A stretch of 63,894 nt of DNA, counting the filler, from Basidiobolus ranarum (lineage: Eukaryota), in assembly GCA_040143965.1 (NCBI GenBank). It is 27 parts of 27 records of this genome, joined end to end, with 100 filler letters (N's around TTAATTAATTAA, not from the genome) between each part and the next. Parts side by side here need not be neighbours in the genome. Positions count along the whole stretch, not along the records: positions 16,633 to 18,906 come from JASJQH010010419.1; 26 more parts are not named here. One strand, 5' to 3'. The notes below the pieces were generated by a model, which worked only from the letters and a program-made list of their open reading frames with translations, searched no databases and was not told the DNA's origin. Positions 16,533 to 19,006 of the stretch are shown here, piece by piece. Position 1 is the stretch's first letter. Each line of letters opens with the position of its first letter. Position numbers and translations under genes: made by a program.

Positions 16533-17000
16533 NNNNNNNNNNNNNNNNNNNNNNNNNNNNNNNNNNNNNNNNNNNNTTAATTAATTAANNNNNNNNNNNN
16601 NNNNNNNNNNNNNNNNNNNNNNNNNNNNNNNNGATGATAAAGAAATAATAGCATTCCTATATTAGTGATCATTACTGTAGGTTCTGATATGGATTTGAAT
16701 TGCAAATGGACTAACATTGTCTTGTGAAGCACTTTATTATGGTATTCAACAAAAGATAACAGGATACCATAACTTTTGCTACTAATGTAGAAATCCTAAT
16801 ATGGAAATACTGAGCTAGCTTAACAATAAATCTATTAACCGGGTCTAATTGAACCAATGTACAGTCTTTACCAAAGTTAATGTTTATGAACTTTATTTAT
16901 TGAATGAATCGGAAGGAAAAGGGAAACAAAGGCGTGAACCTGTAGTATAAACTGATTTTTTGGAGTCATTAAAGTTACTCAAGTATTGAATACAAATTGG

Positions 17001-17683
17001 CTAACAATCTCCACAGTCGTCTTCACCACAGTCATCATTCCATCTGGATCCCCAACTACCAAATCTCCCGAATCTGCCAAACCTACCAAATCTTCCACCC
17101 CTTCCAAATCGACCACGACCAAAGCGTCCTTGGCCTCCTCGATCCCCACGCCCGCGTCCCCTTCGACCTTCGTGGCCACCGCGCCCTCCACGTCGCAACT
17201 CGGTTTCTTCAGGAGAAACATCTAAACTCCTATTTTCTTCATCATCCGCACTGTAGTTAACATCAGTATCCTCAACTTTATCTGAATCAGGTGCCATAGC
17301 ACTGTCAGAGATGATTGGAGTATTTGTATCTTGACCATCAGTTTCGGGAGTTATTGTTTTCATAAGTTTACCGGTTTTATCGAATTGGATCGACCGAATT
17401 TCCCTTTTTTACCAGGAGTAGATTTGGACAAGCGAGTAACTATTTTCCCAAGATTGACGCGACGCAACTGGGATTCTTCAGGAGTAAGTTCGACATTCTC
17501 ATATAACAAGAAGGCGGGAATGAAGACATTATCACCAGTCTCCAGCAACATGTTCTCACCAGCTGGGAAGGTAATAGCTGCAGGCGCAGAAAGATTCTCA
17601 ATAGGTATACTTAGTTTAGTATCAAATGCATTTGTGAGAGAGGCAAACAAGATGGCGTTGATGAGAGTAATTTGGAGATACAT
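17001..17683 (-). CDS. Putative secreted peptide precursor, copy 1 (signal peptide, acidic spacers, LRR sites, Gly/Arg-rich peptide)
   Basis: MYLQITLINAILFASLTNA resembles a signal peptide. Two ORFs overlap at ATGA. Contains TPEESQLRR and SPEETELRR, and GRF repeats. Confidence 0.7.
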
Positions 17684-17855
17684 AATTAGCATGATAGATG
17701 GAATGTTTGAAGCTGTCAAAAAACAAGGCCATATCGAGTCGTTTTATGCAAGCATAATTTAATTTTGTTAAATTAATGTGAAGACATTTTTCAATAGCAA
17801 TAATCCGGGTTAGGCATTCATCTTTGGTACAAACATTCCATCTATCATTCTAATT

Positions 17856-18538
17856 ATGTATCTCCAAATTACTCTCATCAACGCCATCTTGTTTGCCTCT
17901 CTCACAAATGCATTTGATACTAAACTAAGTATACCTATTGAGAATCTTTCTACGCCTGTAGCTATTACCTTCCCAGCTGGTGAGAACATGTTGCTGGAGA
18001 CTGGTGATAATGTCTTCATTCCCGCCTTCTTGTTATATGAGAATGTCGAACTTACTCCTGAAGAATCCCAGTTGCGTCGCGTCAATCTTGGGAAAATAGT
18101 TACTCGCTTGTCCAAATCTACTCCTGGTAAAAAAGGGAAATTCGGTCGATCCAATTCGATAAAACCGGTAAACTTATGAAAACAATAACTCCCGAAACTG
18201 ACGGTCAAGATACAAATACTCCAATCATCTCTGACAGTGCTATGGCACCTGATTCAGATAAAGTTGAGGATACTGATGTTAACTACAGTGCGGATGATGA
18301 AGAAAATAGGAGTTTAGATGTTTCTCCTGAAGAAACCGAGTTGCGACGTGGAGGGCGCGGTGGCCACGAAGGTCGAAGGGGACGCGGGCGTGGGGATCGA
18401 GGAGGCCAAGGACGCTTTGGTCGTGGTCGATTTGGAAGGGGTGGAAGATTTGGTAGGTTTGGCAGATTCGGGAGATTTGGTAGTTGGGGATCCAGATGGA
18501 ATGATGACTGTGGTGAAGACGACTGTGGAGATTGTTAG
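17856..18538 (+). CDS. Putative secreted peptide precursor, copy 2
   Basis: Mirror of copy 1. A possible intron at 18127-18209 fuses both ORFs in frame. AATAAATAAA lies at ~18638. Confidence 0.7.
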
Positions 18539-19006
18539 CCAATTTGAATTCAATACTTGAGTAACTTTAATGACTCCAAAAAATCAGTTTATACTACAGG
18601 TTCACGCCTTTGTTTCCCTTTTCCTTCCGATTCATTCAATAAATAAAGTTCATAAACATTAACTTTGGTAAAGACTGTACATTGGTTCAATTAGACCCGG
18701 TTAATAGATTTATTGTTAAGCTAGCTCAGTATTTCCATATTAGGATTTCTACATTAGTAGCAAAAGTTATGGTATCCTGTTATCTTTTGTTGAATACCAT
18801 AATAAAGTGCTTCACAAGACAATGTTAGTCCATTTGCAATTCAAATCCATATCAGAACCTACAGTAATGATCACTAATATAGGAATGCTATTATTTCTTT
18901 ATCATCNNNNNNNNNNNNNNNNNNNNNNNNNNNNNNNNNNNNNNNNNNNNTTAATTAATTAANNNNNNNNNNNNNNNNNNNNNNNNNNNNNNNNNNNNNN
19001 NNNNNN

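Follow-up and report, generated by a model that had tools for sequence, protein, structure and literature searches.

We analyzed a window of 63,894 bases from Basidiobolus ranarum (assembly GCA_040143965.1), in which one separate contig of 2274 bp (contig 8, 16633-18906) is a palindrome over its entire length and carries, in each arm, one copy of a gene for an orphan protein that resembles peptide precursors. Our preferred explanation, to which we assign an even chance, is that contig 8 represents a real and young inverted duplication of the fold-back type, with the contig ends marking forks in the assembly graph. The broader proposition that the inverted repeat is real, which takes together the young duplication and a pair maintained by gene conversion, has a somewhat better than even chance. 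A recent inverted duplication had also been proposed in the initial annotation, and it remains the best single reading. It should be noted that the window consists of 27 unrelated contigs of 2261-2279 bp each, ordered by size, with artificial N...TTAATTAATTAA...N spacers inserted between them (2280-2379, 4657-4756 and onwards, the last at 61534-61633); contig 8 is the sole whole-contig palindrome among the 27.

Arm and mismatch positions were obtained by exact comparison of contig 8 with its own reverse complement, which gave the following parts:

16633-17709, minus strand: left arm, 1077 bp, carrying gene copy L; reverse complement of 17830-18906 at 1072/1077 positions
17710-17829, no strand: spacer, 120 bp, 68% A+T, asymmetric
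17830-18906, plus strand: right arm, 1077 bp, carrying gene copy R
17690, paired with 17849, no strand: innermost arm difference, 20 bp from the spacer edge and 7 nt upstream of each ATG

The arms are 99.5% identical, in perfect register and with no indel. A repeat search had reported them as "1177 nt, 100% complementary", an inflated result that runs into the N spacers, the true value being 1072/1077; the tools used for such searches score N runs as matches, which accounts for the repeat families D1, I2 and I3 and for the inflated pair I1. The five mismatched pairs (16992/18547, 17337/18202, 17580/17959, 17587/17952 and 17690/17849) are all substitutions, three transitions and two transversions, and correspond to a divergence of 0.46%. 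Three of them fall in the 681 nt of coding sequence and two in the 396 non-coding nt. Two of the coding differences change the protein, Ala33/Thr33 (GCG/ACG) and Ala35/Val35 (GCA/GTA), so that APAA stands against TPVA, while the third is synonymous (Asp, GAT/GAC); the non-coding differences lie 7 nt upstream of the ATG and 9 nt past the stop codon. The palindrome with its head-to-head gene pair and the five arm-specific substitutions had been described in the initial annotation, and both descriptions agree with the exact comparison.

The start codons of the two copies, at 17683 (minus strand) and 17856 (plus strand), are separated by 172 bp, i.e., by the spacer and 26 bp of each arm. The loss of identity at both spacer edges is abrupt, from 99.5% to the random level: 38 of the 120 spacer positions match the reverse complement of the spacer, compared to ~34 expected from base composition, and thus there is no residual symmetry. 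The assembled sequence therefore contains inverted copies around an asymmetric spacer, and the sharp change from arms matching at 1072/1077 to an unsymmetrical spacer is the anatomy of fold-back inverted duplications; any microhomology at a spacer-arm junction is absorbed into the arms. In the human fold-back inverted duplications reported in PMC3907307, a single-copy spacer was present in 21 of 21 sequenced junctions, with spacer lengths of 766-70,466 bp, and the yeast events reported in PMC10622511 have spacers of 6 and 35 bp. Compared to the cases in these two reports, contig 8 has the same copies flanking an asymmetric, non-duplicated spacer with sharp boundaries, as seen in the assembled sequence; it differs from them in the size of the arms (~1.1 kb, compared to kilobases to megabases) and of the spacer (120 bp, compared to the human and yeast values above), and neither a terminal deletion nor a dicentric intermediate is indicated. 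If the palindrome is real, it would be a small inverted duplication of the fold-back type. Structures of this kind are ordinary.

Under this model, a ~1.1-kb segment with one member of a secreted-prepropeptide family would have been copied in reverse, following a fold-back or a template switch ~146 bp upstream of the start codon. The 120-bp fold-back loop would have remained single-copy and become the spacer, the two copies would diverge from a common 172-bp upstream region, in which they may share a promoter, and the five substitutions would have accrued after the duplication. The frame break described below would either predate the copying or have spread later to both arms.

The coding features of the two arms are as follows:

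17856-18179, plus strand: first frame of copy R, 107 codons and TGA; matches positions 1-108 of the family profile, E 1.4e-37
18131-18538, plus strand: second frame of copy R, 135 codons and TAG, at a one-base offset; matches profile positions 93-237, E 5.6e-61
17360-17683, minus strand: first frame of copy L, 107 codons and stop; differs from copy R at Ala33 and Ala35
17001-17408, minus strand: second frame of copy L, 135 codons and stop; one synonymous difference from copy R
18129-18176, plus strand: frame-break interval of copy R, both frames open, with an A6 tract (18129-18134) at the upstream edge
17363-17410, minus strand: frame-break interval of copy L, mirror of that in copy R, with a T6 tract (17405-17410)
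18638-18643, plus strand (mirror 16896-16901): AATAAA found by motif scan, ~100 nt past the stop codon of copy R, a possible polyadenylation signal

Each arm is one complete member of the family, collinear with the profile over its full length (positions 1-107 in copy L and 1-108 in copy R at ~1e-37, and positions 93-237 at 5.6e-61), and profile positions 93-107 are matched by both frames. The frame changes once per arm, at the identical site in both, so that neither arm holds the family protein in a single uninterrupted frame. The initial annotation spoke of two peptide-precursor genes; family membership stands, whereas the frame break shared by the two copies had been missed. Because of the break in both copies, each arm would encode at most a 107-aa product with one module, in which a signal-like N-terminus is followed by an acidic pro-segment and the 32-aa cationic peptide; failing this, the arm would be a very young pseudogene. 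Two antisense open reading frames (ORFs), of 158 aa (17286-17762, plus strand) and 147 aa (17810-18253, minus strand), are taken as by-products of the coding strand. Scans of contig 8 for tRNAs and Rfam families found nothing.

Other contigs of the window are filled by ORFs that run without interruption for 697 and 473 codons, which indicates that base-level quality is good and that indel errors are uncommon in this assembly. The shared frame break is therefore probably real. At the same time, the second frame is undecayed (135 open codons, E 5.6e-61), which leaves three options: a very young break, a base-calling error at the A6 tract, or a bypass of the break. The last possibility can be formulated as a variant within the real-repeat case (it is not added to the overall chance given above), in which the break is no defect: an intron or slippage at the A6 tract joins the frames, and both arms express the full two-module precursor. 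We consider this to be very unlikely. The open and well-matched second frame is what such a model predicts, and this frame opens exactly at the A6 tract; however, A6 is short for efficient slippage. Two GT...AG pairs, of 83 nt (18127-18209) and 65 nt (18145-18209), join the frames in phase and are the only ones to do so, but both remove a segment with Gln118, which is invariant in seven relatives, and the proteins of these relatives are collinear through the region. An intron is therefore less likely than a frame break. In addition, a short one-module form of 106 aa exists in the family (P0010, see below), so that a truncated product may suffice and may be functional.

The family is an orphan one. 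In the searched protein sets, the full-length relatives of the gene, found with the second frame, are seven hypothetical proteins of B. ranarum (K7432_*, 200-237 aa), and a profile search found nothing beyond the same seven. An exhaustive search with the first frame against a representative library returned four matches, namely the same family, two short relatives (80 and 106 aa) and one spurious repeat protein, P0009 (906 aa), which is matched over just ~40 residues and was dropped. A homologue search with the 107-aa first frame among proteins of near lengths gave no matches, and the family alignment, scanned against genome contigs of bacteria and archaea, produced 565 pattern matches, none of which was confirmed. 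P0010, the 106-aa relative, is a natural member with one module, in which a pro-segment with an LLR end lies between a signal-like N-terminus and a Lys-rich peptide; a product resembling the truncated 107-aa first frame thus occurs elsewhere. None of the 21 pairs among the seven B. ranarum paralogues exceeds 68% identity. Two members (K7432_018647 and K7432_018648) have consecutive locus tags on one 7912-bp contig and are 62% identical as proteins; the family expands by local duplication. Neither the two frames of each arm (best E 0.18) nor the seven relatives match a Pfam family; a PDB sequence search gave just compositional RG-rich matches (best E 1.1e-4), and the Protein Atlas gave no usable feature match, with template-modelling scores of 0.27 or less. 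AlphaFold2 on the alignment of seven sequences yielded no confident fold (mean predicted local distance difference test score 43.7, predicted template-modelling score 0.16), and this low-confidence homologue model has helices only at residues 2-19, 57-61 and 68-87, without a folded domain.

Read through the break, the protein of each arm can be divided into six segments:

Segment 1, residues 1-19, 19 aa: hydrophobic, mean Kyte-Doolittle hydropathy 1.31, ends in TNA
Segment 2, 56 aa, net charge -6: acidic, ends in LTPEESQLRR
Segment 3, 32 aa, net charge +8: cationic peptide
Segment 4, 73 aa, net charge -9: acidic, ends in SPEETELRR
Segment 5, 50 aa, net charge +13: Gly/Arg/Phe-rich peptide
Segment 6, 12 aa, net charge -6: acidic three-Cys tail NDDCGEDDCGDC

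The first frame covers the hydrophobic N-terminus, the acidic segment with its LRR end and the 32-aa cationic peptide, and the second frame covers the other acidic LRR-ended segment, the 50-aa peptide and the three-Cys tail. The two ...PEE..LRR motifs result from an internal duplication, which is seen in the DNA as well. The peptide-precursor character suggested by the initial annotation is supported by the family alignment and by the segment charges. Judging from sequence features, the orphan protein looks like a precursor of the antimicrobial-peptide type: it would be a secreted prepropeptide, cleaved after dibasic sites, whose acidic pro-segments mask the cationic peptides.

Several of these features are those of Kex2-processed repeat proteins and of prepropeptides of the alpha-factor type: a hydrophobic, signal-like N-terminus, a dibasic RR after the motif L[TS]PEE[ST][QE]LRR, which occurs twice, an alternation of acidic pro-segments and cationic peptides, a model without a folded domain (at low confidence), and a lineage-restricted, multi-copy family. 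Kex2-processed repeat proteins are defined in PMC7329392 by at least three tandem repeats of at least 8 aa between KR/KK/RK/RR sites, whereas there are two L[TS]PEE[ST][QE]LRR modules per orphan protein, and the repetition concerns the pro-segment rather than the peptide that would be released. Conservation of the second Arg of LRR is also incomplete in the family, since LHR, LLR and LRH occur in the relatives. According to the survey of 1461 fungi in the same source, Basidiobolus meristosporus has the most Kex2-processed repeat proteins, with 18 in 2-3 copies. The orphan protein also resembles the RG/RGG-rich tails of SmD1, SERBP1 and ribosomal protein S2 in its Gly/Arg-rich composition, and such tails account for all of the PDB matches; unlike RG/RGG RNA-binding proteins, it has a signal-like N-terminus, acidic pro-segments, an acidic tail containing Cys and no Pfam domain.

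The reliability of contig 8 depends on the character of the assembly. All 27 contigs span a size range of just 19 bp, and in this 64-kb sample 14 of the 27 contigs, at 18 of 54 ends, terminate in a repeat shared with another contig of the window; from these two properties, we infer a highly fragmented short-read graph assembly. Most Basidiobolus genomes are described as short-read Illumina assemblies (10.1101/2025.03.31.646025). The initial annotation had assumed that the arms probably extend further than the contig, both ends of which stop at mirror positions. Mirrored ends, however, arise automatically when a repeat arm is walked twice in graph assembly. A short-read graph assembler would stop where the different flanks of the two arms fork; the mirrored ends most simply mark this fork, and ~1077 bp would be the full length of the arm, without further extension.

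Whole-genome amplification and long-read libraries are well known to give rise to palindromic chimeras. The main alternative is an assembly or library artefact of a single-copy gene at a heterozygous or multi-nuclear locus, which we regard as possible, with clearly less than an even chance. In this scenario, a fold-back chimera, or a wrong graph walk through the spacer and back down the same arm, would produce the palindrome, and bubble handling or read-based polishing would then spread two alleles over the arms. Contig 8 shares with palindromic artefact contigs its complete self-complementarity and its ends at mirror positions, which present the same sequence. It differs from them in its centre of 120 bp, which is unique and asymmetric, and an artefact would need two distinct junctions, both supported by reads well enough to survive graph cleaning; a short-read graph assembler would normally prune a rare chimeric junction, and the true path from the spacer into a unique flank should fork and would have broken the contig. 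Misassembly of unitigs at repeats is documented in PMC9528984, where the errors reach SPAdes and MEGAHIT contigs; the unsafe-unitig cases of this source concern low coverage.

The arm differences were put forward in the initial annotation as an argument against a fold-back artefact. They consist of substitutions only, including a site 20 bp from the spacer, which does not fit the error of a raw long-read or single-molecule fold-back and excludes the latter; two alleles placed on the arms by the assembler or polisher remain compatible with them. Indels are absent from the arms, and just one of the 27 contigs is affected, so that nothing in this small sample points to a systematic artefact. In reads extending into the asymmetric spacer, the innermost pair, 17690/17849, is the best marker for deciding whether the arms represent paralogues or alleles.

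Several considerations weigh against the young duplication. Both spacer-arm junctions are known from the assembled sequence alone. A divergence of 0.46% is a normal level of heterozygosity too and fits allelic variation; in a false palindrome, the arms can each receive one of two alleles during assembly or polishing. The rates of difference in coding sequence (3 in 681 nt) and in non-coding sequence (2 in 396 nt) are similar. The identical frame break in both arms is expected if the arms were built from the same reads, and it is counted in favor of an artefact as well. A 99% arm pair is out of character for a family in which 0/21 paralogue pairs exceed 68%, and the adjacent pair is just 62% identical; the annotated B. 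ranarum paralogues include no near-identical pair. The objection from paralogue identity is tempered, because near-identical copies would collapse in short-read assemblies. The assembler and the sequencing platform are themselves deduced.

A reading of contig 8 as a transposon or foldback element was rejected, as it has no similarity at E 1e-10 or better to the other 26 contigs.

Ampliconic palindromes, for example P1-P8 of the human Y chromosome, are held alike by arm-to-arm gene conversion. Contig 8 resembles P1-P8 in its arm identity (above 99.5%), in carrying a gene copy per arm and in its unique spacer, whereas it is orders of magnitude smaller, and conversion is a candidate process only. 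It is conceivable, and in our estimate unlikely, that contig 8 is an older, real head-to-head pair kept near-identical by conversion between the arms. The adjacent paralogues with consecutive locus tags on one B. ranarum contig show that neighbouring copies occur in the family; these, the only other adjacent pair of the orphan family, are 62% identical, so that no homogenization has taken place there. The shared frame break and five scattered substitutions fit the spread of one allele, and the three innermost differences lie within 130 bp of the spacer. However, the spacer has no decayed symmetry, and the drop from 99.5% identity to random occurs in one step. A still more elaborate version combines several of these ideas: a natural, near-perfect 2.3-kb palindrome homogenized by conversion, in which one divergent promoter of 172 bp drives both precursor copies and A6 slippage bypasses the break, so that each arm yields a short one-peptide or a full two-peptide product. 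We consider this combination to be highly improbable.

The two genes of contig 8 diverge from its centre. The initial annotation had predicted that read-through transcription across the centre would give a hairpin RNA of over 1 kb. This prediction does not hold: the 3' ends and the AATAAA motifs point outward, the mRNAs have the same sense, and read-through cannot cross the centre because divergent genes are transcribed outward. A hairpin RNA is possible only from an antisense promoter located outside.

If real, contig 8 would be a clean, small example, from an early-diverging fungus, of the growth of a lineage-specific secreted-peptide family through fold-back duplication, seen at a stage when the copies have diverged by 0.5% and both already carry the frame break. 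It would then also be a convenient natural substrate for studies of how stably a 1-kb inverted repeat with a spacer of 120 bp is maintained. If it is an artefact, its value is a warning for the annotation of such contigs. The orphan family, which has an antimicrobial-peptide-type look in a gut-associated fungus, may outlast the palindrome in interest.

Two other contigs of the window contain inverted repeats. Contig 25 has a 405-bp pair (58042-58446 and 58767-59171) with 89% identity and a 320-bp spacer; this repeat is older than that of contig 8 in the same assembly, and its right arm reaches the contig end, so that the contig stops at the repeat edge. Contig 13 has two inverted 102-bp copies (28498-28599 and 30439-30540) with 96% identity and ~1.8 kb between them. 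One copy lies at the contig start, and the pair may represent the terminal inverted repeats of a transposon.

Other contents of the window include two contigs of unusual base composition. Contig 11 (23753-26025, plus strand) has a G+C content of 47.5%, compared to ~35% for most contigs, and is filled by one open frame, which encodes a fragment of a nonribosomal peptide synthetase with a PP-binding domain, a Condensation domain (E 3.8e-115) and the start of an AMP-binding domain. This is consistent with the bacterial-like genes for such synthetases reported for Basidiobolus in PMC7466969. Contig 14 (30868-32286, minus strand; G+C 47%) contains a fragment of an MFS transporter (MFS_1, E 2.6e-24). 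A nuclear RNase P RNA is located at 62753-63050 (minus strand), with a full-length match to RF00009 at 114 bits, and marks the source as a eukaryote.

Repeated sequences are represented by a dispersed family, with 79-90% identity over up to 1.2 kb, in contigs 7, 9, 10 and 19 (14259-16532, 19007-21279, 21380-23652 and 42715-44982); its frames have a Cys-rich KLPSCPNGC...C..C motif and match no Pfam family, and it is possibly an unclassified transposon. Fragments of copia-type retrotransposons, with gag_pre-integrs and Pol_BBD domains, are found at 45084-45641 and 49277-49714 (both plus strand). Contig 23 (52181-54444) has many diverged internal direct repeats (62-78% identity) and is strongly strand-biased (minimum GC skew -0.27, minimum AT skew -0.32). 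The contig at 9509-11783 contains an ORF (10269-11093, plus strand) that has no Pfam match at E 0.001 or better and is followed by an apparent intron after the frame end; the end of this ORF is presumably a protein-kinase-like start.

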